Below, piece by piece: positions 8,225 through 36,600 of a stretch of DNA of 64,000 nt. This stretch comes from an uncultured Candidatus Saccharibacteria bacterium (lineage in GTDB: Bacteria; Patescibacteriota; Minisyncoccia; Phycocordibacterales; JAACPR01): the NCBI GenBank assembly GCA_964630375.1, contig CAZVRT010000002.1, positions 41,706 through 105,705 on the forward strand. Reading direction: 5' to 3'. Below the pieces are notes generated by a model that did no database searches, was not told the origin of the DNA, and saw nothing but the letters and a program-made list of their open reading frames with translations. Position 1 is the first letter of the stretch, and each line of letters begins with the position of its first letter. The translations under genes were made by a program, and so were the position numbers.

Positions 8225-9217
8225 TCAAATCTTTAAAAACTTCTCAACAATCTCCTCAACTTCCTCCAAATCTTTTGCATCCATTAGTTGAATGCGTAAT
8301 TCTTTTGCCCCATCAAAACCTTCAACGTAAGCTTTATAGTGCTTCTTCATAACAGAAAAATTTTTGTGGGGTAAAATTTCTAAAAAAAGTTTTGTATGTT
8401 CAATCATCACTCGCAATCTTTCTTCAACACTAATATCATAATCACGAATAATTTCCGGATTGAAAAACCAAGGATTTCCAAAAATTCCACGACCAACCAT
8501 TACACCATCAACACCAGTTTCTTCTGAAACTTGTTTTGCCTTTTCCAAAGAATCAATGTCTCCGTTTCCAAGTAAAATTGTTTCAGGAGAAATTTTATCT
8601 CGTAGCTCCACAGCTTTTTTTGCAAGTTCCCAATGTGCAGGAACTTTTGACATTTCTTGCCGAGTTCTCCAATGAATTGTTAAAGCCGCCGGTTTTGTAG
8701 AAAGAATTTCTGAAATCCAGTTTTCCATTTCTTCGATTTTGTTGTAGCCGATGCGAGTTTTTACCGAGATTGGTAGGAGCGGCGCGCCTTGGCGCGCCGC
8801 TCCTACCAAACTTTTCGCCAACTCCGGATTTTTAATCAACGCCGCCCCACTCTTTTGTTTTTCAACACCTCGATCAGGGCAACCCATGTTTATATCAATT
8901 CCATCAAATCCCAAATCTTGCACCAACTTCGCAGCACCCATCATCATCTCAGGCTTTCCAGAAAAAAGTTGTGCCACAATTGGTCTTTCCTCTTCTGTAT
9001 ATTCCAAATCTTTTAACAACTTTTGCTTTGAAGAAAACCCTGAATCATCAAAATTATCATCAGGTGCCATTATCAAACCATCAGCAGAAACAAATTCTGT
9101 CCAAGTAACATCCGGTTTTCCATATTTTGCAAACAAACGACGAAAAGGCGCATCTGTAACATCCGCCATCGGTGCCAAAACAATTATTGGTTTTTTCAAC
9201 TTCTGCCAAAAATTCAT
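8225..9217 (-). CDS. dus: tRNA-dihydrouridine synthase
   Basis: 'VLAPMADVTDAPFR', 'GFDGIDINMGCP' and 'ISVKTRIGY' are TIM-barrel Dus signatures. A 40-nt perfect GC-rich palindrome sits inside the CDS at 8770-8809. Confidence 0.85.
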   Translation of the reverse strand: MNFWQKLKKPIIVLAPMADVTDAPFRRLFAKYGKPDVTWTEFVSADGLIMAPDDNFDDSGFSSKQKLLKDLEYTEEERPIVAQLFSGKPEMMMGAAKLVQDLGFDGIDINMGCPDRGVEKQKSGAALIKNPELAKSLVGAARQGAPLLPISVKTRIGYNKIEEMENWISEILSTKPAALTIHWRTRQEMSKVPAHWELAKKAVELRDKISPETILLGNGDIDSLEKAKQVSEETGVDGVMVGRGIFGNPWFFNPEIIRDYDISVEERLRVMIEHTKLFLEILPHKNFSVMKKHYKAYVEGFDGAKELRIQLMDAKDLEEVEEIVEKFLKI

Positions 9218-9225
9218 CTGCCTAT

Positions 9226-10236
9226 TTATTCATATCGCACATTCTTTTGCAAGAACGACAAAATATTTCTTGTATCTCTCTCAATATCTTGGGTGTTCAA
9301 AATAATAATCGCAATTTTTCTTTCGCCAAAATCCGCATCACCATTCAACTTCACACTAAACAACCCAACATTCGTTTTTCCGGCTGCACTAATATATCCA
9401 TTCTTTCCTCCCAAATAATTTTTATCACCTTTAAATCTAGAATTCGAATGCCAAACTTTTCTTCCAAGACGATAATTTTTCTCTTGTGTAATTTCAAAAA
9501 TAAAACTTCTGTATTTATAAATATACTGACTTAGTGAAAATAAATCCTTCACACTTGAAACATTTTTTGAAGAAAGTCCACTCGGATCTTCGAAAGAAGT
9601 TTTTTCTAAATTTAAAATTTTTGCCCGTTCGTTCATATCAAGCAAAAAAGTATATCGATTATCAAATTCAGAAATAACTTCAGCCGCGTCGTTTGAAGAT
9701 TCCAACAACAGAGGATATAAAAGCTCTTCTATTGTATATTTTTCTCCTCTGTTTAAATTTCCCTGCTCGCCCGTTGTTGAAACAGCACGACTAGAAACAA
9801 CAGTTTCTTTTTCTAAACCAATCTTTTCATCAGCAATCACCGCAGTCATAAGTTTCGTCACAGAAGCAATTGGCACCGAAGCATCTTCTCCTCTGCTAAA
9901 AATAACCTGATTAGTTTCTATATCTCCAACCAAAAAATACTTTGCGGAAATATTCGGAAACTTTGCATCTTCTTCCACGTAATAATTTCTAAAATTTGTT
10001 GTTGGGACTTCTCCATTTCTATCAGAATAAGGTCCACCCAAACCTCCTCTAACAATAATATCTCTACCAAAACTTATTCGTAAATTATTTTTATATTTTT
10101 CAGAAGCAAAAACATAAACACCTTGAGAAACTTTCACAAAACCAACTCCTGCAAAATACAAAATCACTAAACAAAGTAACCCTAAAAGAGAGATAACAAC
10201 CTTATTATTTTTTAACAACAATTTCGCCGTTTTCAT
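9226..10236 (-). CDS. D-alanyl-D-alanine carboxypeptidase (peptidase S11 / PBP5-like), membrane anchored
   Basis: N-terminal TM segment, an SxxK motif 'SVTKLMTA' and an SxN motif 'ESSNDAA'. Confidence 0.65.
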   Translation of the reverse strand: MKTAKLLLKNNKVVISLLGLLCLVILYFAGVGFVKVSQGVYVFASEKYKNNLRISFGRDIIVRGGLGGPYSDRNGEVPTTNFRNYYVEEDAKFPNISAKYFLVGDIETNQVIFSRGEDASVPIASVTKLMTAVIADEKIGLEKETVVSSRAVSTTGEQGNLNRGEKYTIEELLYPLLLESSNDAAEVISEFDNRYTFLLDMNERAKILNLEKTSFEDPSGLSSKNVSSVKDLFSLSQYIYKYRSFIFEITQEKNYRLGRKVWHSNSRFKGDKNYLGGKNGYISAAGKTNVGLFSVKLNGDADFGERKIAIIILNTQDIERDTRNILSFLQKNVRYE

Positions 10237-16973: not shown

Positions 16974-19145
16974 ATGTCAAAACTAGTAATCGTAGAGTCA
17001 CCTGCAAAGGCAAAAACAATTGAAAAATATCTTTCAGAAATCGGTGACTACCGAGTGGTTGCTTCTGTTGGACATATTCGTGACCTGCCAAAAAGTCAGA
17101 AAAAAGCTATTGATATTGAAAAAGGTTTCAAACCAAATTACGAAGTTGTAAAAGGAAAAGAAAAAGTTATCAGCGAAATAAAATCTCTGGCAAAAAAATC
17201 TGATGAAGTTCTACTTGCAACCGACCCCGACCGCGAAGGAGAAGCTATTGCTTGGCACTTAAAAGAAGCGGCTGATTTGAAAAAATCAAAGAGAATTGTC
17301 TTCAACGAAATTACAAAAGAAGCGATTCAAGAAGCCATCAAACATCCGCGTGCAATCGACGATGACTTAAAACAAGCTCAAGAAGCTCGACGAGTTTTGG
17401 ATCGACTTTTCGGTTATGGCCTTTCTGGTTTGATTTGGAAAAAAGTTCGCTACGGACTTTCTGCTGGACGAGTTCAATCTCCTGCTCTTCGTATATTAAT
17501 GGAAAGAGAAAGAGAAATCCGTGCTTTCAAGCCTGAAACTTTTTGGGTTATTACAGCCGATTTAAAATCTAAAAATGTTTCTTTCACTACGACTTGCAGC
17601 GAAGAACCTAGAGACAAAAAAGAAGTTGATCGTATCTTGGAAGAAGGAAAAAATGGAGATTGGATTGTAAAAGACATCAAAGAAACTCAAGCCAAAAGAT
17701 CTCCGTATCCTCCTTTTATTACATCAACACTGCAGCAAGCAGCTTCAACACGACTTGGTTATTCCCCTTCTCGAACAATGCAACTTGCACAAAAACTATA
17801 CGAAGCAGGACACATCACATATATGCGAACAGACTCAACAAATCTTTCAAAACAAGCTTTGGGACAAATTGCTGGGGTTGTAGAAAAAAAATACGGAAAA
17901 GATTATTTGTCATTTCGCACATACGGAAAAAAATCTAAAGGTGCACAAGAAGCTCACGAAGCAATTCGTCCGTCAAACATAAACAAAGAAAATGTCGGGA
18001 CAACAGAGGAACAAAAAAGATTATACAACTTGATTTGGGCAAGAGCAGTTTCAAGTCAAATGATTGATGCAAAACTTTTACGAACAAAAATAATTGCGAA
18101 TATAAAAGAAGATTCTATTCCAGATTTTAGTATCAACGGACAAAGAACTCTTGAGCTTGGTTGGATGAAAGCTGACCCTGTTGCAAGAAGCGAAGAAACT
18201 GAAGTGCCTGCAGTTAAGATTGGTGAAGATTTGGATTTGATTGACATCAAAGATGAAGAAAAACAAACTCAACCACCATCAAGGTATACAGAAGCAGGTT
18301 TGATTAAGGAATTGGAAAAAAGAGGTATCGGCCGACCTTCTACTTACGCCTCAATTATTAAAACTCTAAATGACCGAGGTTATGTAGAAAAAGAAGGACG
18401 AACTTTAATTCCGACAGACACAGGCGATGTTGTTTCTAGTTTTATCGAACAACACTTCGACAAATATATTTCTGATGACTTCACTGCCGAAATGGAAGAC
18501 GAACTAGATGAAATCGCTTCAGGAAAAGCAACTTATGAAAAAACTCTAAAAGATTTTTATGGACCTTTTATAAAAGATATTGATAAAAAAGAAGACATAG
18601 AAAAAATTACAAATCTTGGAGATGCTGATCCAAAATTCAAATGTCCTGTTTGTGGCAAAAAAATGCAAATCAAACTTGGTAAAGCAGGAAAGTTTTTGTC
18701 TTGTATAGATTTCCCGGACTGTACTGGAGCTCTTACAATCGATGGCGAAGAATGGAAAGAAAATGCACCAATCGGTGAAGATCCTGAAACAGGTTTGCCG
18801 GTAAAAATTCTTACAGGTCGTTTCGGTCCATACATTCAAATTGGAGAAAAAACAAAAGAAAATCCAAAACCTCGACGAGCAAGCATTCCAAAAGAAATTG
18901 ATCCAAGTACAGTTACAATGGAGCAAGCTTTGAAGTTTTTATCACTTCCTCGAACTTTAGGACAACACCCAGACACGGGAAAAGATATTATCGCCAACAA
19001 TGGACGGTTTGGTCCTTATGTAATGCACGACGGAGATTTTCGTTCTCTAAAAACTGACAATGTTTATGAAGTTGGGTTGAGTCGGGCGTTGGAGATTTTA
19101 GCTGAAGAAAAGAAAACTAGAAGAGGAAGAGGCAAACAAAAATAA
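16974..19145 (+). CDS. topA: DNA topoisomerase I
   Basis: TOPRIM 'LVIVESPAKAKTIEKYL', 'ATDPDREGEAIAWH', an active-site-tyrosine region 'GHITYMRTDS', and C-terminal zinc-ribbon repeats 'CPVCGKKM...CIDFPDCTG'. Confidence 0.9.
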   Translation: MSKLVIVESPAKAKTIEKYLSEIGDYRVVASVGHIRDLPKSQKKAIDIEKGFKPNYEVVKGKEKVISEIKSLAKKSDEVLLATDPDREGEAIAWHLKEAADLKKSKRIVFNEITKEAIQEAIKHPRAIDDDLKQAQEARRVLDRLFGYGLSGLIWKKVRYGLSAGRVQSPALRILMEREREIRAFKPETFWVITADLKSKNVSFTTTCSEEPRDKKEVDRILEEGKNGDWIVKDIKETQAKRSPYPPFITSTLQQAASTRLGYSPSRTMQLAQKLYEAGHITYMRTDSTNLSKQALGQIAGVVEKKYGKDYLSFRTYGKKSKGAQEAHEAIRPSNINKENVGTTEEQKRLYNLIWARAVSSQMIDAKLLRTKIIANIKEDSIPDFSINGQRTLELGWMKADPVARSEETEVPAVKIGEDLDLIDIKDEEKQTQPPSRYTEAGLIKELEKRGIGRPSTYASIIKTLNDRGYVEKEGRTLIPTDTGDVVSSFIEQHFDKYISDDFTAEMEDELDEIASGKATYEKTLKDFYGPFIKDIDKKEDIEKITNLGDADPKFKCPVCGKKMQIKLGKAGKFLSCIDFPDCTGALTIDGEEWKENAPIGEDPETGLPVKILTGRFGPYIQIGEKTKENPKPRRASIPKEIDPSTVTMEQALKFLSLPRTLGQHPDTGKDIIANNGRFGPYVMHDGDFRSLKTDNVYEVGLSRALEILAEEKKTRRGRGKQK

Positions 19146-19146
19146 T

Positions 19147-19215
19147 CGTGCAAATTTTTGCCAGTCCTCGGCTCACGCCTGCGGAAGCAAAAATTTGCAC
19201 GATTATTTTTGTTTC
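19147..19215. terminator. Long bidirectional terminator hairpin: an 18-bp stem with a 25-nt loop, flanked by an A-run on the left and a T-run on the right
   Basis: aatcgtgcaaatttttgc...gcaaaaatttgcacgatt, then atttttgttt. It serves topA on the plus strand and could also end a minus-strand transcript. Confidence 0.5.
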
Positions 19216-19244
19216 CCACTATCTCTAGTTTTCATAAATAAAAA

Positions 19245-19527
19245 GTGGGTTGAGCGACCTGCGAAATCGCTCAACCCTGTTTCAACATAGTGTATTATTT
19301 CCCTGCTCAGCGACAGTCGCTCGGGGCGATTGCGCTGGGTGGTTAAGTCGGCATACACTTTTTGTAACGGCACACAAACCAGAATACTGGACGGATATTC
19401 TATGCTTGGTTGAAACTAACCGCGAGTAGACGCGTCTTTGTGACTGACCCTAGCAAAACCACACATTACGTCAGCCAAGGTGTCGACTGCGCAACAGACT
19501 AAGACAAAGAACGGGCCACTGATTTTA
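19245..19527 (-). ncRNA. Candidate structured ncRNA of about 280 nt, identity unresolved. Some RNase-P-like strings are present but the call is not secure.
   Basis: GC-enriched block (about 50%). A minus-strand promoter TTGCGA-17-TATAAAAT lies at 19549-19522. The minus-strand 3' end is a GGGTTGAGCGA/TCGCTCAACCC hairpin followed by ACUUUUUAUUUAU. Plus-strand reading gives 'ACAGUCGC', 'UAAGUCGGC', 'GUAACGGC' and 'GACUGCGCAACAGA', which resemble RNase P P2/P4 strings. Confidence 0.35.
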
Positions 19528-19560
19528 TACAACAAAACAAAAAATATCGCAATAGCCTTC

Positions 19561-24168: not shown

Positions 24169-24182
24169 TAGATAAAAACAAA

Positions 24183-24214
24183 AAAGCGCCGGCTCCGCCG
24201 GCGCTTTTTTGTTT
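24183..24214. terminator. Bidirectional terminator between convergent genes
   Basis: aaaaa-AGCGCCGGC-tcc-GCCGGCGCT-ttttttgtttt, with gyrB ending at 24221. Confidence 0.65.
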
Positions 24215-24220
24215 TAAAAA

Positions 24221-26281
24221 CTACAAGTCGATATCAGCAGATTTTGCGTTTGTTGTGATGAACGATTTTCGAGCTGGAACATCTGTTCCCATTAACATAT
24301 CAAACACCTTGTCAGCTTCTTCACCATCTTCGATACTAACTTGTTTCATTACTCGATTATTTTTATCCATAGTTGTTTCTTTCAACTCATCAGCGTTCAT
24401 TTCTCCAAGACCTTTGTATCTTTGAACTCGAATCTTCGGCGCACGCTTTGATTTTTCATCTGTCTCTTCTTCAATTTCAATTACATTTCCGTCTTCATCT
24501 AATTCATCTTCTTGTGGTTCTTCATCATCACCTAAATACGCTTTCTTTTCTTCATCAGAATACAAATAGACAACTTCTTTTCCTTTTGTAATTTTATAAA
24601 GCGGAGATTGAGCAATATACAAATACCCTCCTTCAATTACAGGTCTGAAATATCGGTAGAACAAAGTCAAAAGCAAAGTTGCAATGTGAGCACCATCGAC
24701 ATCGGCATCTGTGGCAATAATAATTTTGTGATATCGAAGTTTTGAAATATCAAATGTATCTCCAATTGCTGTTCCAAGTGCAACAACTAGATTTTTAATT
24801 TGTTCAGAAGAAAGCATTCTGTCCAGTCGTGCTCGCTCAACATTCAAAATCTTTCCTCGAAGTGGCAGCACAGCTTGTGTTCGACGATCTCGTCCAACTT
24901 TTGCAGTACCTCCGGCAGAGTCTCCCTCTACAATAAACAATTCAGATTCCTCAGCGCTTTTAGTCTGACAGTCTGCAAGCTTTCCAGGAAGTGTCATTCC
25001 TTCCAAAGCTCCTTTTCTAAGTACAGAATCTTTCGCAGCTTTCGCAGCTTTTCTAGCTTTCACAGCAAGAATCGCTTTTTGAACCATTGCTTTCGCATCG
25101 TCTGGGTTTTCTTCCAAGAAATACGAGAACGCTTCTCCAAAAACACTTTCTACCGCTCCTCTAGCCTCTACAGAACCAAGTTTTGCTTTTGTTTGTCCTT
25201 CAAATTGAATCTCTGGCATTTTTACAGAAACAACAGCAGTAATACCTTCAAGCACATCGTCTCCAGTAAAACTTTCAACATCTTTTGAATTTGTTTTTTG
25301 TTTCTTTACATAGTTGTTTAAACTTCTTGTCAGAGCAGTTTTAAAACCTGTTATGTGTGTTCCACCTTCAGGGTTGCTAATAGTGTTTGCAAATGCGTTT
25401 ATTCTCGCAGAAATATCATCTACATATTGAAGAGCAACTTCAACATTTACATCACCAACATCTTGTTGAACATGAAAAATATTTTTATGAATCGGAGATT
25501 GAATTTTATTTTGATACGCAACAAGCGAACGAAGTCCTCCTTCGAAATAGAAAGTTTTTGAAGGCGCTTCTGCTTCACAGTCACCCAAATAATGAACATT
25601 ATCTGGAATATCTTTTGGATCAGCTTTTCTTAAATCAACAACAGAAATTCTCAAACCACTTACCAAATAGGCTTGTTGTCGCATGTGATTAACACATCTT
25701 TTATAATCAAAAATAACAGTTTCAAAAATTGTTGGATCTGGTTGGAATGTAATAATTGTTCCTTGGAAATCTGATTTACCAACTTTCTTTACAGGACCTT
25801 TTGGTTTTCCAATATTATATTCTTGGACATATTTCGCTCCACCTGTATGAACTTCAGCTTTAGCAAAAGTAGAAAGCGCGTTTACAACTGAAGCACCCAC
25901 ACCGTGCAAACCTCCCGAAACTTTATAACCAGAACCCTCTCCTCCGAACTTACCTCCGGCATGAAGAGTTGTCATAATAGTTTCCAAAGCAGAAACTTTT
26001 GTAACCTTGTGAACATCAACAGGAATACCTCGTCCGTTGTCAGCTACTCTGATAGTGTTGTCAGGCAAAAACGCAATTTCGATATTGTTGGCATGACCAG
26101 CCATTGCCTCATCGCGAGAGTTATCAAAAATCTCAATAATAAGGTGATGAAGACCATCTGGACCTGTTGTACCAATATACATTCCCGGCCGTTTTCGCAC
26201 CGGTTCCAACCCTTCCAAAACCTGAATCTGATCTGCTCCGTAGTTACTCTTAGGTGCTTTTTTATCGTCGTTTTTTGCCAT
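24221..26281 (-). CDS. gyrB: DNA gyrase subunit B
   Basis: GHKL ATPase 'HHLIIEIFDNSRDEAMAG', 'DNGRGIPVD', TOPRIM 'ELFIVEGDSAGGTAK' and 'QRYKGLGEMNADEL'. Confidence 0.9.
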   Translation of the reverse strand: MAKNDDKKAPKSNYGADQIQVLEGLEPVRKRPGMYIGTTGPDGLHHLIIEIFDNSRDEAMAGHANNIEIAFLPDNTIRVADNGRGIPVDVHKVTKVSALETIMTTLHAGGKFGGEGSGYKVSGGLHGVGASVVNALSTFAKAEVHTGGAKYVQEYNIGKPKGPVKKVGKSDFQGTIITFQPDPTIFETVIFDYKRCVNHMRQQAYLVSGLRISVVDLRKADPKDIPDNVHYLGDCEAEAPSKTFYFEGGLRSLVAYQNKIQSPIHKNIFHVQQDVGDVNVEVALQYVDDISARINAFANTISNPEGGTHITGFKTALTRSLNNYVKKQKTNSKDVESFTGDDVLEGITAVVSVKMPEIQFEGQTKAKLGSVEARGAVESVFGEAFSYFLEENPDDAKAMVQKAILAVKARKAAKAAKDSVLRKGALEGMTLPGKLADCQTKSAEESELFIVEGDSAGGTAKVGRDRRTQAVLPLRGKILNVERARLDRMLSSEQIKNLVVALGTAIGDTFDISKLRYHKIIIATDADVDGAHIATLLLTLFYRYFRPVIEGGYLYIAQSPLYKITKGKEVVYLYSDEEKKAYLGDDEEPQEDELDEDGNVIEIEEETDEKSKRAPKIRVQRYKGLGEMNADELKETTMDKNNRVMKQVSIEDGEEADKVFDMLMGTDVPARKSFITTNAKSADIDL

Positions 26282-26377
26282 AAATAAATGATTTTAAGTC
26301 CTCTAATTTTATCAAAATACACCTTATTTACAAGGATTTTGTGTGGTGTAAATACATTTTTTCTGAGGTTTTTTAGG

Positions 26378-26406
26378 TTGACATTTTGCTAAAATATGTT
26401 AATATT
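26378..26406 (+). promoter_or_regulatory. Sigma70-like promoter TTGACA-16-TAATAT, 150 nt upstream of ORF 26557
   Basis: The only near-consensus -35/-10 pair in the 270-nt gyrB-upstream intergenic region. Confidence 0.4.
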
Positions 26407-26442
26407 AGGAGGTGATAGTTCTTTAAAAATTAACTTGCGAAA

Positions 26443-26497
26443 GGTCATAGCGAAAAGCGGTTTATGTAAATAACATAAACCTCTCCTCGCTGTGACC
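26443..26497 (+). promoter_or_regulatory. Structured leader: an 11-bp stem (GGUCAUAGCGA / UCGCUGUGACC, one G·U pair) enclosing an 8-bp inner hairpin GGUUUAUG-uaaauaa-CAUAAACC
   Basis: Nested complementarity read directly from the sequence. It lies in the 5' leader of a GC-rich, foreign-looking ORF. Confidence 0.3.
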
Positions 26498-26556
26498 AAT
26501 GAGTGGTCTAGTCAGTGTCTCCTGAAAGAGATTTAGTTTTCAACGCAAAATAAATT

Positions 26557-26922
26557 ATGAACATACCCTCTAGGCTGAAAGAATACATTACGAAGAGATA
26601 TAGTCCAGAAGTGGGATTGTGGGCTTGCTATGATATCGTTTTTGAAGGCAGAGAAGACATCCAATGCACGCTTAGTCTCTGGTCAGACATGAGACTGTGC
26701 TTGGTGTTGTATGGTACTGACGGAGAAGCAGCATCTGGAGTGGAGAATTATACAATTCACAATATGTCAGGTGTCATAATTGGAAGTTTTGACGAACACA
26801 GTCAAGCAATCGTGGAATCATCTTCTGTGGTTGAAGGATTTGAAATCAGAAACCTTCAAGGAGATGTCCTGAACGGAACGCTTTATGCAGTCGTTAAGAC
26901 AATTCCTCACATCATTGCTTAA
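26557..26922 (+). CDS. Hypothetical protein, 121 aa, GC about 43%
   Basis: ORF with atypical composition. No family motif. Confidence 0.35.
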   Translation: MNIPSRLKEYITKRYSPEVGLWACYDIVFEGREDIQCTLSLWSDMRLCLVLYGTDGEAASGVENYTIHNMSGVIIGSFDEHSQAIVESSSVVEGFEIRNLQGDVLNGTLYAVVKTIPHIIA

Positions 26923-27006
26923 GTGATAGTTGTGATTGCAATTGTCATTCAAAGCTCATACAGGTAATGCTGGTGGGTTTTTTCTTTTTCAAATTTAGTT
27001 GAGTTG

Positions 27007-27142
27007 ATAAATAAAATACTCCATTATAAATACGTAGCGGAGCCGTCCCAAACGGTGAGCTTCAGCGAAAATTAAAATCGCAGACACTTGTGTCTGCGAT
27101 TTTAATTTATCGCGTGTATTTATAATGGAGTATTTTATTTAT
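27007..27142. repeat. 136-bp nested palindromic element: perfect 27-bp terminal inverted repeats (ATAAATAAAATACTCCATTATAAATAC) enclosing a 19-20-bp near-perfect hairpin (AAAATTAAAATCGCAGACAC / GTGTCTGCGATTTTAATTT); MITE-like
   Basis: Left inverted repeat 27007-27033 and right inverted repeat 27116-27142 are exact reverse complements. The inner arms are at 27068-27087 and 27090-27109. The element abuts the stop codon of the 27143 minus-strand gene. Confidence 0.6.
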
Positions 27143-27715
27143 TTACCCAACAAAAATACAAAGCCTCCTCCAATACCTCTCAAACTTCTCTATCTCCACA
27201 AACAAATTTTTCTTTATTCCTCTCGGAGATTCTGGATCGTTATACATAAAACCAAGTACATCACCATTATCATCCAGATCATACCCTGTTAAAACAATCA
27301 GATGAGATGACTTATTATCTCCAAAACCAACATCAACAGAAACAATCACAGGTCTTCCCGCCTTTATCATTTTTACAATCTTTTTGATTCCAGCTTTCGC
27401 CATCTTCGCATCATAAATACTAGGCACACGAGAATTATTTCCATTACCAATCAACTGACTTTTAAATTCTTCCTTGTATGAAAAAATTCCTCTGTTGCGA
27501 AAAATCCTAACTAAAGATTCATGATCCCAACCATTTTCATTGTATCCACCAATTTTTACACCTTCATCAATCAAAGCATCTATACTTTCATCATTGTCTG
27601 GATAAAAATATTTGATAATCATTTTTGCAGAAGTGATTCCACAAGCACGAGAGCGCCACTTTTCTTCTAAAACATTTTGATATTGAGAATAATAAGGCAC
27701 ATCAATAAAATACAT
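27143..27715 (-). CDS. Papain-fold cysteine peptidase, C39-like (Peptidase_C39_2-type)
   Basis: 'VPYYSQYQNVLEEKWRSRACGITSAKMII' carries the catalytic Cys, and a downstream 'SSHLIVLTGYD' carries a His. Confidence 0.45.
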   Translation of the reverse strand: MYFIDVPYYSQYQNVLEEKWRSRACGITSAKMIIKYFYPDNDESIDALIDEGVKIGGYNENGWDHESLVRIFRNRGIFSYKEEFKSQLIGNGNNSRVPSIYDAKMAKAGIKKIVKMIKAGRPVIVSVDVGFGDNKSSHLIVLTGYDLDDNGDVLGFMYNDPESPRGIKKNLFVEIEKFERYWRRLCIFVG

Positions 27716-27734: not shown

Positions 27735-30065
27735 CTATCGAACCTTCCAACCAGTTTGACTGTTTAAAACTTGAGAAACTTTTTCCATTATCGAGTTAAT
27801 TTGTTCATCAGTTAATGTTTTTTCGAAAGATTGAAAAACTATTCTAAACGCATATGAAACGTTTCCATCTTTCTCAAACTTATCGAATAGGCGATTTTGT
27901 ACAACCAAATCTCCGGCATTTTCTTTTATTAAATTCCAAACATCTTCTTCTGAAACATTTTGTGGAACCCAAACAGCAATATCGCGCACAATAAAAGGAT
28001 AAATTGAAAACGCTTTATATTGTTTTGGAGAAAATTCTTTTTGAATTTTATAAAAACTATTTTGATCAACTTCCGGCAACTTTGAAATAATTTTATCTAA
28101 GTTTATTTCTGCAACTTTTTCTTTTATTTCAAAATCTGCATCACTTAGACTAAATTTATTTTTCAATTCCTCAATTGTTTTTTTCAAAGATTTTGCATTT
28201 GAGTTCGCAATTCCAAGTGTCAAAAATTCTTCTTCACCCTTAAACACTTTTCCAATTTCAAAAATTCGTACTTCACCCAAACCAAGTAAATCAATATTTC
28301 TTGTATTCAATTCTAAACTTTCTTTCAATCCGTCAGATAAATTATTTCTTAAAAAGCCTTTATCTTTTGTTAGAGGATTTGAAATCTGCACATCACCTTT
28401 TGATTGCAACGTATATGTCATCACATCCGTATACCCAAGACTCAAAAGAAAATCAGCGAACTCAAGAGAATAATATTGTGTCTTATCAAGCAACCGTGCA
28501 GTTTCTCTTTTTACCTCGTTGTTTCCAATATTTGAATAACCATAAACGCGTGCGATTTCTTCAATCAAATCTTCTTTGATTCGCACATCAATTCTTTCAT
28601 CCGGCACAGTCACCACAAATCTTTCTTCATCAGGATTTACAACTCTTCCATATCCAACAATATTTTGAAACCTTGTAGAATTTTTTATATCCTCGATAGT
28701 AACACCAGCATTGTTTTCTTCTGTACAATGAATCACTTCGTCATTCCCAAGATAAATTCCACAATGATCTACTCCTTCTGGAACTTGTATTCCTTTCATA
28801 AACTCGATACTTTCAGTATCTATTTTTCTATTTAAAATTCCTGTATTTGAAAAAATTAAATCTCCAGGCAACAAATTGTCTTTACCAATTTTAGAACTAA
28901 ATACATATTGATCTATCGACATTCGCGGAATTGAAGCTCCAGCTTCTTTGTACAAATAAGAAGTAAAAGATGAACAATCAAACGCTTCCGGTGCATCAAA
29001 CAAAACACTCGCTCCATATTTATAAGGTCGTCCAACAAAACTTTTTGCCATCTCAACGATATTTTCCAACGGCTTTACTTTATTATGTTCAAAATGCAAT
29101 CTATCCAAAATATTTGAAATTTCAGATTCAGAAAGATTTGTTCCAAGATATTTATTCACCTCGTTCACAGATACACCAGTTTTATATTGCCCTGCTTTTC
29201 TTGGATAAACATCAATAATGCTTCCAACTTTTGTATTTTCGTCAGATGCATACTTCAAAAGCATTTCTGTTAGCCGATTCATTGCAATCTCCGCCCACAG
29301 AGGTGTGATATCTCTTTCAAATCTTTTTGAAGATTCAGTATCAATTTGCAAAGCTCGTCTAGTTTTTCTTATTGCAACTGCGTCAAAGTTTGCAGCCTCC
29401 AAAAGCAAATTTACAGTTCCTTCTGCAACTTCAGCTTTTTTCCCTCCTTTAATACCTGCAATTGCTAAAACATCTTTTTCATCTGCAATCACCATTTCAT
29501 TTCCGGCAAATTTCACTTCTTTGTTATCCAAAGTTGTAAATTGAGTTTCGGCTTCAACGGTTCGCACCAAAATTTTCTTTCCACTCAATTTATCAGAATC
29601 AAAAGCATGAAGTGGTTGCCCTAAATCAAACATCACCACATTTGTACAATCAACAATATTATTTATAGATTTTTGCCCAATCGTTTCCAATTTCTTTTTC
29701 AATTCTTCAGGAGACGGACCAAGCTTTACTCCACGAATTTCTCGAGAGATATATCGCTTACAATTTTTGTCGTTCACTTCAACAGAAAATTCTGTTTCAA
29801 AATCAACTCGACTAATTTCATTTGGATAACCCTTCAAAGAAATTCCTGTCAAAACATTTACTTCTTTCGCAATTCCATAATGAGCAAAAGAATCATGTGC
29901 TCTGTTTGGTTGCACATCTATTTCATAAAGAAAATCATCTCCAACTTCTTTTACAGCTTCAACTTCATAAGCACCAACAGTCAAAGTGTGAGCAAGAGAT
30001 TTTGCATCAGGAAGTTTTCCATCTAAATGTTCTTGTATCCAATTGTACGAAACTCGCATACTCAT
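27735..30065 (-). CDS. pheT: Phenylalanyl-tRNA synthetase beta subunit. It lacks the N-terminal tRNA-binding domain and carries an inserted NlpC/P60 peptidase domain.
   Basis: B1-like 'SYNWIQEHL...VQPNRAHDSFAHYGIAKE', a B3/B4 editing region, B5 'VTVPDERIDVRIKEDLIEEIARVYGYSNI' and a C-terminal core. Residues about 335-475 are 'GRPYKYGASVLFDAPEAFDCSSFTSYLYKEAGASIPRMSIDQ...PGDLIFS...VDHCGIYLGNDEVIHC', the NlpC/P60 signature. Confidence 0.85.
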   Translation of the reverse strand: MSMRVSYNWIQEHLDGKLPDAKSLAHTLTVGAYEVEAVKEVGDDFLYEIDVQPNRAHDSFAHYGIAKEVNVLTGISLKGYPNEISRVDFETEFSVEVNDKNCKRYISREIRGVKLGPSPEELKKKLETIGQKSINNIVDCTNVVMFDLGQPLHAFDSDKLSGKKILVRTVEAETQFTTLDNKEVKFAGNEMVIADEKDVLAIAGIKGGKKAEVAEGTVNLLLEAANFDAVAIRKTRRALQIDTESSKRFERDITPLWAEIAMNRLTEMLLKYASDENTKVGSIIDVYPRKAGQYKTGVSVNEVNKYLGTNLSESEISNILDRLHFEHNKVKPLENIVEMAKSFVGRPYKYGASVLFDAPEAFDCSSFTSYLYKEAGASIPRMSIDQYVFSSKIGKDNLLPGDLIFSNTGILNRKIDTESIEFMKGIQVPEGVDHCGIYLGNDEVIHCTEENNAGVTIEDIKNSTRFQNIVGYGRVVNPDEERFVVTVPDERIDVRIKEDLIEEIARVYGYSNIGNNEVKRETARLLDKTQYYSLEFADFLLSLGYTDVMTYTLQSKGDVQISNPLTKDKGFLRNNLSDGLKESLELNTRNIDLLGLGEVRIFEIGKVFKGEEEFLTLGIANSNAKSLKKTIEELKNKFSLSDADFEIKEKVAEINLDKIISKLPEVDQNSFYKIQKEFSPKQYKAFSIYPFIVRDIAVWVPQNVSEEDVWNLIKENAGDLVVQNRLFDKFEKDGNVSYAFRIVFQSFEKTLTDEQINSIMEKVSQVLNSQTGWKVR

Positions 30066-36208: not shown

Positions 36209-36339
36209 ATATTTAGTTTATCAGAAACACTTTTGTGAGAAAATAAATTTAAAAAACGTTGCCGAATAGTGCATCCGCAGGTTGTATAACGAAGTTATAC
36301 AAAACCGAGGACCGCACTGAGAGGCAACGTTTTTTAAAT

Positions 36340-36546
36340 TTATTTCTTCGCAGCAGCTCTTCGCGCCTTGAACTTCTCAACTCGTCCCGCAGTATCCAAA
36401 ACTTTTTCTTGTCCTGTATAGAAAGGATGGCAAGCGCTACAGATTTCCACATTCAATTTTTCTTTTGTAGAACCAATAACAAAAGAAGCTCCGCAGGCAC
36501 ATACCGCGTTTGAACTTGCATAAAAATCTGGATGAATATCTTTTTT
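36340..36546 (-). CDS. rpmE: 50S ribosomal protein L31. The start is '[10 protein letters not shown]', and the ORF-track N-terminal extension is unlikely.
   Basis: '[47 protein letters not shown]' contains the CxxC...CxxH zinc ribbon. Confidence 0.8.
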
Positions 36547-36600
36547 CATAGTGACAAAGACTATATCAGATAAAATGAATAATAGCAATATACCCTATTT

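Follow-up and report, generated by a model that had tools for sequence, protein, structure and literature searches.

Several described kinds of palindromic sequence invite comparison with the locus that is analysed here. Bidirectional intrinsic terminators evolve fast through compensated changes, and in B. cereus they are under tighter constraint than ordinary terminators, which contain ~5% G·U (PMC5381666). The Correia elements (CREE) of Neisseria are miniature inverted-repeat elements (MITEs) of ~100–150 bp, with a conserved core set between long inverted repeats of ~26 bp; they are transcribed together with the genes beside them, and RNase III acts on their folded RNA, providing a precedent for cleavage within paired repeats (PMC2649163, PMC10969869). 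SPRITE sequences are terminator-like repeats, enriched between convergent genes and near gene 3′ ends, with AAAA/TTTT at their ends (PMC3049150); they are AT-rich, shorter than 200 bp, form a long duplex, and occur in ~30 sequence-similar copies per genome. REP sequences and REPINs are palindromes outside genes, richer in GC than the genome as a whole, and are found at convergent junctions and the 3′ ends of genes; the conserved repeat of a REPIN is its arms, and its loop varies. Finally, attC sites are palindromes of 57–141 bp downstream of small orphan cassette ORFs, conserved in structure, variable in sequence and in some cases branched in their central part.

The window, by which we mean the whole 64,000-nucleotide stretch of DNA from an uncultured Candidatus Saccharibacteria bacterium, is gene-dense and has a GC content of 34%. 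At positions 27007–27142 it contains a palindrome of 136 bp, for which a preliminary description had offered three explanations: a MITE, a recombination or cruciform site marking an insertion boundary, or a protein-binding operator. We conclude that this nested palindrome is real, non-random and evolutionarily maintained, and that it is a variation on known kinds of element—bidirectional terminators and terminator-like palindromes—and not a MITE.

Genomic context

The local order is gyrB (24221–26281, − strand), divergent promoters, a structured leader, an ORF of 121 aa, a terminator (here called T1), the element, a C39-like peptidase gene (27143–27715, − strand; Pfam PF13529, 5.5e-15), pheT and pheS. 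The peptidase gene, referred to as C39 below, is the last of a pheS-pheT-C39 string, and its stop codon (27143–27145, − strand) directly adjoins the element, just as the preliminary description had it. Converging on C39 is the 121-aa ORF (26557–26922, + strand), a rare orphan, and the element lies between these two converging units. The promoter of the ORF, TTGACA-16-TAATAT (26378–26405, + strand), is divergent from that of gyrB, near consensus and equipped with a TG extension, and T1 (26951–26990, + strand), an imperfect hairpin followed by a T-run, is the ORF's own one-way terminator. The ORF had been called GC-rich; its GC content is above the window mean of 34%, but only ~40%.

The only genuine homologue of the 121-aa protein is P0028 (84 aa, 61% identity). 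Neither the 121-aa protein nor the ORFs found at this place in relatives had a match in Pfam, PHROGs or PADLOC. Residues 25–41 of the former carry a short motif, D.VFEGRED...L.L, that also occurs in P0029, a repetitive protein of 4211 aa, as a unit repeated ~15 times; this may reflect a fragment-like relationship or merely a common beta-sandwich motif.

The surroundings are of a housekeeping kind. Between 12.6 and 42.8 kb, we find serS, dprA, topA, parB, miaA, gyrB, pheST, tsf, rpsB and the genes for a release factor and L25, among others, and Pfam scans of ORFs of ≥70 aa in the same region revealed no transposase, recombinase, integrase or reverse transcriptase. PheT (27735–30065, − strand) carries an NlpC/P60 peptidase domain (residues ~345–470, E 1.3e-16) between B3_4 and B5, an insertion that is kept in all relatives examined (L012, L014, L017, L019, L021 and L022). 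At 242 aa, the PheS beside it is unusually short, and a gene for a further papain-like (C39-like) peptidase comes next.

Anatomy of the element

Exact terminal inverted repeats of 27 bp had been reported, and we confirm them: ATAAATAAAATACTCCATTATAAATAC at 27007–27033 (+ strand) is the perfect complement of 27116–27142 (− strand), a match of which none is expected in shuffles of the window, even at up to three mismatches. Weaker complementarity extends beyond the arms, at 85% over 47 nt, into the last codons of the peptidase gene. The inner hairpin, previously given as near-perfect over 19–20 bp, is perfect over 19 bp (arms AAATTAAAATCGCAGACAC at 27069–27087 and 27090–27108, with a loop of 2 nt), the twentieth base being unpaired. 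As a whole, the element folds at −77.6 kcal/mol on the + strand and −76.5 kcal/mol on the − strand (z ~ −14), which none of 200 shuffles equalled. An identical element is present in two independent Logan assemblies from other runs (L001, L002), ruling out an assembly artefact.

The resulting shape is a three-way-junction palindrome, composed of an outer helix P1 of 27 bp, an inner helix P2 of 19 + 4 bp, and a GC-rich core that includes the small hairpin P3. In the sense of C39, the order is P1 (27 bp), AC, the P2 base (GCGA/TCGC) with the 19 bp of P2, TGAAGCTCA, P3, CTCCGCTAC and P1′. The 5′ arm of P1 (27116–27142, − strand) begins at the base after the C39 stop and pairs perfectly over 27 nt with the 3′ arm (27007–27033, − strand). 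P2 occupies 27065–27113 on both strands, its 19-bp hairpin standing on the 4-bp base GCGA/TCGC; the top of the stem is GC-rich, and on either strand an A-tract lies 5′ and a T-tract 3′ of it. The core (27034–27064, − strand) is asymmetric, with P3 (CCGTT TGG GACGG) between TGAAGCTCA and CTCCGCTAC, and has an internal loop that is closed by a 3-bp helix, AGC/GCT. Against Rfam, only tRNAs of the window scored above the gathering threshold and no family matched the element; in E-value mode, it drew only generic long-hairpin microRNA models, far below threshold. Topologically, though in no other respect, the combination of arms that pair at the ends with one small and one long hairpin is like that of a retron ncRNA; a retron msr-msd was rejected, there being no reverse transcriptase domain in 12.6–42.8 kb.

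Of all parts of the element, P2 most resembles a terminator. On both strands it reads CGCAGACAC-NN-GTGTCTGCG followed by ATTTTAATTT, that is, a GC-rich stem and a U-tract, and on both it folds at −29 kcal/mol. In size and energy it matches the plain bidirectional terminator between gyrB and the CARDB gene (24175–24215), which has perfect 19-bp arms, folds at −30 to −32 kcal/mol and is flagged by a terminator scan. From the GC-rich stem top, the U-tracts on both strands and this likeness to plain bidirectional terminators, we infer that P2 is a working intrinsic terminator for polymerases arriving from either side. The preliminary description had considered the palindrome too long and too perfect for a terminator. 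This does not apply to the inner hairpin, since the plain bidirectional terminators at 8770–8809 and 24175–24215 also have perfect 19-bp arms, and perfect arms of 19–26 bp are usual for bidirectional terminator hairpins in this clade; what sets the element apart is thus its outer helix and conserved core, and not that its hairpin is perfect. Accordingly, the likeness to bidirectional intrinsic terminators covers the GC-rich stem top of P2, its A- and U-tracts on both strands and its convergent-gene position. It ends at the second perfect helix that encloses P2, of 20–31 bp among the homologues described below, and at the sequence-conserved GC-rich junction, two features that no described terminator has.

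Inverted repeats that are identical at the DNA level are also typical of invertons, and here the interior contains a hexamer resembling a −35 box, and the repeat one resembling a −10 box. In such a case, the 27-bp repeats would serve as recombinase crossover sites for flipping the 82-bp interior. However, only one orientation of the interior occurs in the assemblies (window, L001, L002, L017, L018, L019, L020, L023–L026 and L029), no recombinase is encoded nearby (12.6–42.8 kb), and a spacer of 82 bp is at the lower limit for site-specific inversion, all of which makes an inverton highly improbable.

The C39–gyrB interval in relatives

For comparison, we took the contigs of 13 close relatives of the peptidase (71–80% identity). 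The synteny GT2-hyp-pheS-pheT-C39 ... gyrB-CARDB is conserved among them, and the interval between C39 and gyrB is variable. It is empty in L022 and L027, with 66 bp from stop to start codon; it holds a co-directional Mur ligase gene in L012 and L013, a co-directional Big_7/PG_binding gene in L014–L016, and a converging cassette in the window, L017, L019, L023 and L028 and, as judged by its flank, in L029. The slot of the cassette corresponds to 26282–27142 in the window, 6577–7077 in L017, 6574–7563 in L019, 702–1648 in L023 and 1048–1675 in L028. With a length of ~0.8 kb, it is bounded by the element and has a conserved promoter and terminator, and the ORFs within it are mutually unrelated orphans of 121, 159, 205 and 119 aa; in L017, there is only a hydrophobic peptide of ~24 aa. 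The promoter is kept in L017 and L023 despite the differing ORFs downstream, and the T1 sequence (GCTGACGGGATTTTTCTTTT) in L017, L019, L023 and L029. T1 is imperfect, in contrast to P1 and P2; its copy in the window carries several G·U pairs, which the full-length copies of L017, L019 and L023 do not.

The leader of the 121-aa ORF, downstream of the cassette promoter, contains a hairpin of ~55 nt (26443–26497). The first ~40 nt of the leader (GTTCTTT...GAAAGGTC) are common to the otherwise different leaders of L023 and L028, and these two share a structured leader of ~90 nt as well as the first few codons, ahead of unrelated ORFs.

The element itself was seen only at loci with a converging cassette, always directly after the C39 stop: orthologues are present in L017/L018, L019/L020, L023–L026 and L029, and partial copies in L021 and L028, which amounts to five independent homologues whose adjacent peptidases are 72–80% identical. 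It is absent from the empty sites of L022 and L027 and from L012–L016, which have co-directional genes. Two of the copies are composite or truncated. All that is left in L028 is the 5′ arm and P2; beyond these, a different converging ORF starts, and P2 serves it directly. In L023/L024, P1 is degenerate (15 of 28 pairs), its 5′ arm resembling that of L028/L021 and its 3′ arm that of the window. The L028 remnant and the mixed arms of L023/L024 indicate recombination breakpoints within the element. Hence, the suggestion that it marks an insertion boundary stands to the extent that the element is located at the edge of a variable segment of foreign look, with breakpoints lying inside the element in these relatives.

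Might the palindrome then be a DNA-level recombination or cruciform site—an attC or the target of another hairpin-recognising recombinase—by which the neighbouring cassette is exchanged? The breakpoints inside it, its location at the 3′ end of an ORF that is small, an orphan and variable between strains, and perfect arms with a mirrored indel (see below), suggestive of DNA-level processes, would all fit, and with attC it shares a conserved structure with variable sequence, the location downstream of a small orphan cassette ORF and, for some attC sites, the branched central part. Yet its arm ends (ATAAATAAA... and ...TTTATTTAT) bear no RYYYAAC/GTTRRRY boxes and there are no R″/R′ core sites; the arms lack extrahelical bases, bulges, or an unpaired central spacer or bubble; and there is no array, nor any integrase or other recombinase within ~15 kb on either side. 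Supercoiling is positive where genes converge, which works against the extrusion of a cruciform, and plain homologous recombination in the flanks (C39, P2 and the core at one end, the gyrB promoter at the other) suffices for cassette turnover. We thus consider a dedicated recombination site unlikely. Resemblances of some arms to dif/Xer and parS sites were rejected as well, as they are not conserved between copies.

Evolution of the helices and the core

In an alignment of four sequences (A2), 95.9% of cells pair, and 18 of the 43 pairs change on both sides, compared to a single pair that changes on one side. None of 500 shuffles reached the observed values, and slid registers pair at 34–45%. 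Changes on both sides affect 7 of 12 inner P1 pairs (four homologues) and 10 of the 23 pairs of P2, and a pair of the core (68–93) covaries from A-U to U-A. Judged by these alignments, both long helices are maintained via fully compensated changes and the core is conserved in sequence.

The layout is the same in L017, L023/L024 and L029 and more divergent in L019. Four lineages have a perfect P1, which measures 27 bp in the window, 26 bp in L017, 26–31 bp in L029 and 20–21 bp in L019, and each time its sequence is different: identity of the arms between orthologous copies is 53–83%, with some pairs almost unalignable. The core, by comparison, is 81–90% identical among the window, L017, L024 and L029, versus 74–81% for adjacent coding DNA. 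Between the arms of the window and of L017, there are substitutions and a 1-nt indel, all of them mirrored in the partner arm, and in L029 the perfect helix takes in the C39 stop codon and the last five coding bases. In the four intact homologues, P1, P2 and the P2 base together comprise ~185 pairs, of which, read in the C39 sense, none is G·U and two are A·C.

As in the window, a GC-rich stem with an immediate U-tract on both strands characterises P2 in L017, L023/L024 and L029. It does not in L019, where the A/T polarity of the equivalent hairpin is reversed and the U-tract is missing, a departure from bidirectional terminators, and in L029 and L019 no U-tract follows P1. Termination is therefore not the sole conserved function. 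Likewise, the degenerate P1 of L023/L024 implies that a perfect outer helix is not indispensable. A hammerhead core, suggested by CTGATGA in the P3 loop of L019, was rejected: the motif is no more than the loop on a 4-bp stem, and Rfam gave no ribozyme match.

A conserved core and a strong fold could equally be expected of an independently transcribed small RNA or antisense RNA gene, and a promoter-like sequence, TTGGGA-17-TATAAT (− strand), lies inside the element and is aimed at the 3′ end of the cassette. Its spacing or its hexamers are lost in L029 and L019, however, and the internal promoter was rejected for this lack of conservation. Moreover, a transcript starting there would leave out one arm of P1, Rfam yields generic hairpins only, and the absence of G·U on either strand argues against an RNA that is made from one strand. 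An RNA gene of this kind is accordingly even harder to defend than a recombination site, and we regard it as rather improbable.

Copy number and the MITE hypothesis

At 136 bp, AT-rich, devoid of a credible ORF and folding into a long hairpin, the element has the size and shape of a MITE. It does not behave like one: it is present as a single copy in the window, lacks a target-site duplication and keeps its orthologous position after the peptidase stop. Exact searches, searches with up to three mismatches and covariance-model searches all returned one copy in the window, and the inner arm is likewise unique; the element's covariance model, applied with filters disabled, found one full copy at 120.8 bits, all other hits being plain hairpins of at most 29 bits. 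A 20-mer of the arm gave five lone arms and no paired copy in 185,579 species genomes, three lone arms without a partner in JGI metagenomes and none in IMG/VR. These lone matches, in unrelated Bacteroidota-type contigs, are chance matches. Searches of viral contigs for the core pattern and blastn against phages found nothing.

The flanks (...GAGTTG / element / TTACCC...) show no direct repeat, and the empty sites of L022 and L027 miss the whole 0.8-kb cassette, not merely 136 bp. Since the arm sequences are unconserved (identity down to 53%), they cannot be terminal repeats recognised by a transposase, and the same free variation leaves the protein-binding operator without support. Instead, comparison of related loci shows the element kept as the 3′ end of the peptidase gene, which speaks against a MITE. 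To call it simply the terminator of that gene captures only part of this, as the element is conserved there but only its inner hairpin resembles an ordinary terminator.

The element nonetheless resembles described repeats in several ways. Like Correia elements, it consists of long inverted repeats around a conserved core at a comparable total length; of the >100 copies, conserved terminal repeats, IHF site and outward promoters that mark those elements, none was found here. Correia elements also carry a TA duplication, of which there is none here. With REP sequences and REPINs it has in common that it is an extragenic palindrome, is GC-rich against the genomic background and sits at a gene 3′ end and a convergent junction, yet the roles of the parts are exchanged—its arms vary and its loop is conserved—and the portion of the window that we scanned showed no RAYT gene.

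Palindromes with a GC-rich core at other gene ends

A scan for perfect inverted repeats identified four more elements of the same architecture, two in the window and one each in L019 and L022, in which a long, perfect, AT-rich helix extends from the stop codon around a GC-rich imperfect hairpin. At the topA stop codon (19134–19214, + strand), a perfect helix of 28 bp surrounds GTCCTCGG..CCTGCGGA; at that of rpmE, which encodes L31 (36241–36345, − strand), a perfect helix of 23 bp surrounds the same core and an inner hairpin; and two elements are located at the end of gyrB, in L019 (9624–9708) and L022 (5565–5711). The arms of these four palindromes are perfect over 23–31 bp, and all four contain, oriented in the sense of the gene that they abut, the invariant core GTCCTCG..CTGCGG; Rfam has no match for these palindromes. 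A role of the GC-rich core as an uptake signal sequence was rejected, the motif occurring only twice in 64 kb. In viral contigs, GTCCTCGG..CCTGCGGA has at least 120 matches, GC-rich and without flanking palindromes, and these are due to chance; three phage contigs with a hairpin at the match have a different fold and no tRNA.

Two neighbouring features of the window deserve mention. Between the palindrome at the topA end and parB, ~330 nt are free of genes (19227–19560), have a GC content of ~45% versus 34% and contain several GC-rich hairpins; no Rfam family matched at E up to 1, there is no tRNA or tmRNA, and the segment could be an unrecognised RNA gene. The L31 gene (69 aa; 36343–36552, − strand; Pfam 6.1e-29) is hidden from a simple ORF map by an ORF of 84 aa on the opposite strand (36259–36513).

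How do these palindromes relate to the element at C39? The core variant of the latter was seen only at the orthologous C39 site, the sole candidate elsewhere being the gyrB-junction element of L022, which has the full layout P1-AC-P2-core-P1′ and matches the model of the 136-bp element over its whole length at 38 bits. Plain terminators reach 22–30 bits with this model and the true, divergent orthologue of L019 scores 29, the sub-types thus not being cleanly separated; the L022 match is for this reason weak evidence of homology, and a common origin of the two core types is suggested rather than established by it.

The preliminary idea of a MITE finds some echo here, in that gene ends elsewhere do bear elements of the same architecture, which one relative may have and another lack at an orthologous junction; to this extent the class behaves somewhat like a dispersed repeat. 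At the gyrB/CARDB junction, there are plain hairpins in the window, L012, L014 and L017, and a core-bearing element in L019 and L022. (In L019, gyrB itself shows several frameshifts over ~500 bp at 8700–9250, probably owing to poor consensus quality or a pseudogene; what appeared to be an insertion there was tried as a further element and proved to be this run of frameshifts.) In addition, the topA copy of the window and the gyrB copy of L019 are readable as a simple terminator stem with an insert of 45–47 nt that starts with AAATTTT and ends with AAAATTT.

The main rival to an account in terms of a terminator module draws on the same observations: a small, non-autonomous, terminator-like repeat family, in the style of SPRITE, Correia or REP sequences, that colonises the loops of bidirectional terminators or is copied from one such loop to another. 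The variable arms would then be the stems of the colonised terminators, and the core, with or without P2, would be the repeat unit. It is in line with this that four copies of GTCCTCG..CTGCGG reside within unrelated perfect helices, that orthologous gyrB/CARDB junctions are polymorphic, that two copies look like stems with inserts, and that the L022 element has the complete layout. SPRITE sequences set a precedent (PMC3049150), and the elements are like them in being AT-rich, under 200 bp and of long duplex, with A/T-tract ends, near 3′ ends between converging genes and with no demonstrable target-site duplication; they differ in that the helices here are dissimilar from copy to copy, and what is shared is a short GC-rich core. 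On the other side of the balance are the confinement of the 136-bp element's core variant to the orthologous C39 site, the modest margin of the 38-bit match over plain terminators (22–30 bits) and the L019 orthologue (29 bits), and the lack of target-site duplications, conserved termini or a transposase. That all cores point in the sense of the abutting gene also fits a role in RNA better than random insertion. We give such a repeat family roughly one chance in several.

Only slightly greater is the weight that we attach to a broader proposal, namely that these palindromes constitute a new class of 3′-end element in an uncultured, AT-rich lineage, defined by a conserved GC-rich core and a fast-evolving, perfect helix of 20–31 bp at the stop codon. 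Tentatively, such an element might act as a transcript-insulation module or be a tiny repeat that colonises loops. On this same tentative proposal, the helix begins at the upstream stop codon or includes it, and a two-way terminator is sometimes built in. Spelled out, the alternatives would be a structured RNA or protein-binding module on the one hand, and a repeat without terminal repeats or target duplications on the other.

Discussion

What might the physiological role of the element be? As the point at which the pheS-pheT-C39 string meets a converging, strain-variable cassette, it may be a nested two-way terminator combined with a read-through trap, a proposal to which we assign about even chances. 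In terms of kinship, we place it, on the architecture of the palindromes compared above, within a lineage-specific class of terminator-like palindromes that abut stop codons and have a GC-rich core. P2 would end transcription arriving from either side. Only when transcripts read through P2 would P1 form in the RNA, closing into a perfect double-stranded RNA of 20–31 bp, which might serve as a second block or as a cleavage site of the RNase III type, thereby keeping read-through from becoming antisense RNA to the opposing gene. A perfect duplex of this length is long enough for RNase III-type recognition. The conserved core, for its part, probably binds a factor or sets the fold.

The near-total absence of G·U can be explained along the same lines: a device that must fold in both transcripts tolerates only Watson-Crick pairs. 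Processes in the DNA may contribute, as arm-to-arm template switching could help keep P1 perfect. Quasi-palindrome correction by template switching is established in E. coli and, acting at the DNA level, would account for the mirrored indels. Two considerations count against a trap made of RNA. If termination at P2 is efficient, P1 will be rare in RNA and selection on it weak; and homogenisation at the DNA level accounts for perfect arms and mirrored indels no less well than selection on RNA does.

If true, the proposed two-way terminator and read-through trap would mean that a small, gene-dense genome insulates its essential pheST operon from a converging, often exchanged cassette by means of a single palindromic device, which terminates transcription in both directions and traps what reads through. 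Aside from that, the element is an unusually clean case of long helices that are kept Watson-Crick through rapid turnover, mirrored indels included, and this upkeep bears on the interplay of selection in both transcripts and palindrome correction in the DNA. The conserved frame with its swappable ORF forms a small hotspot of gene turnover that is worth cataloguing. And the GC-rich core that recurs at the ends of housekeeping genes represents a tractable candidate for an RNA motif or a repeat family in a poorly studied lineage.
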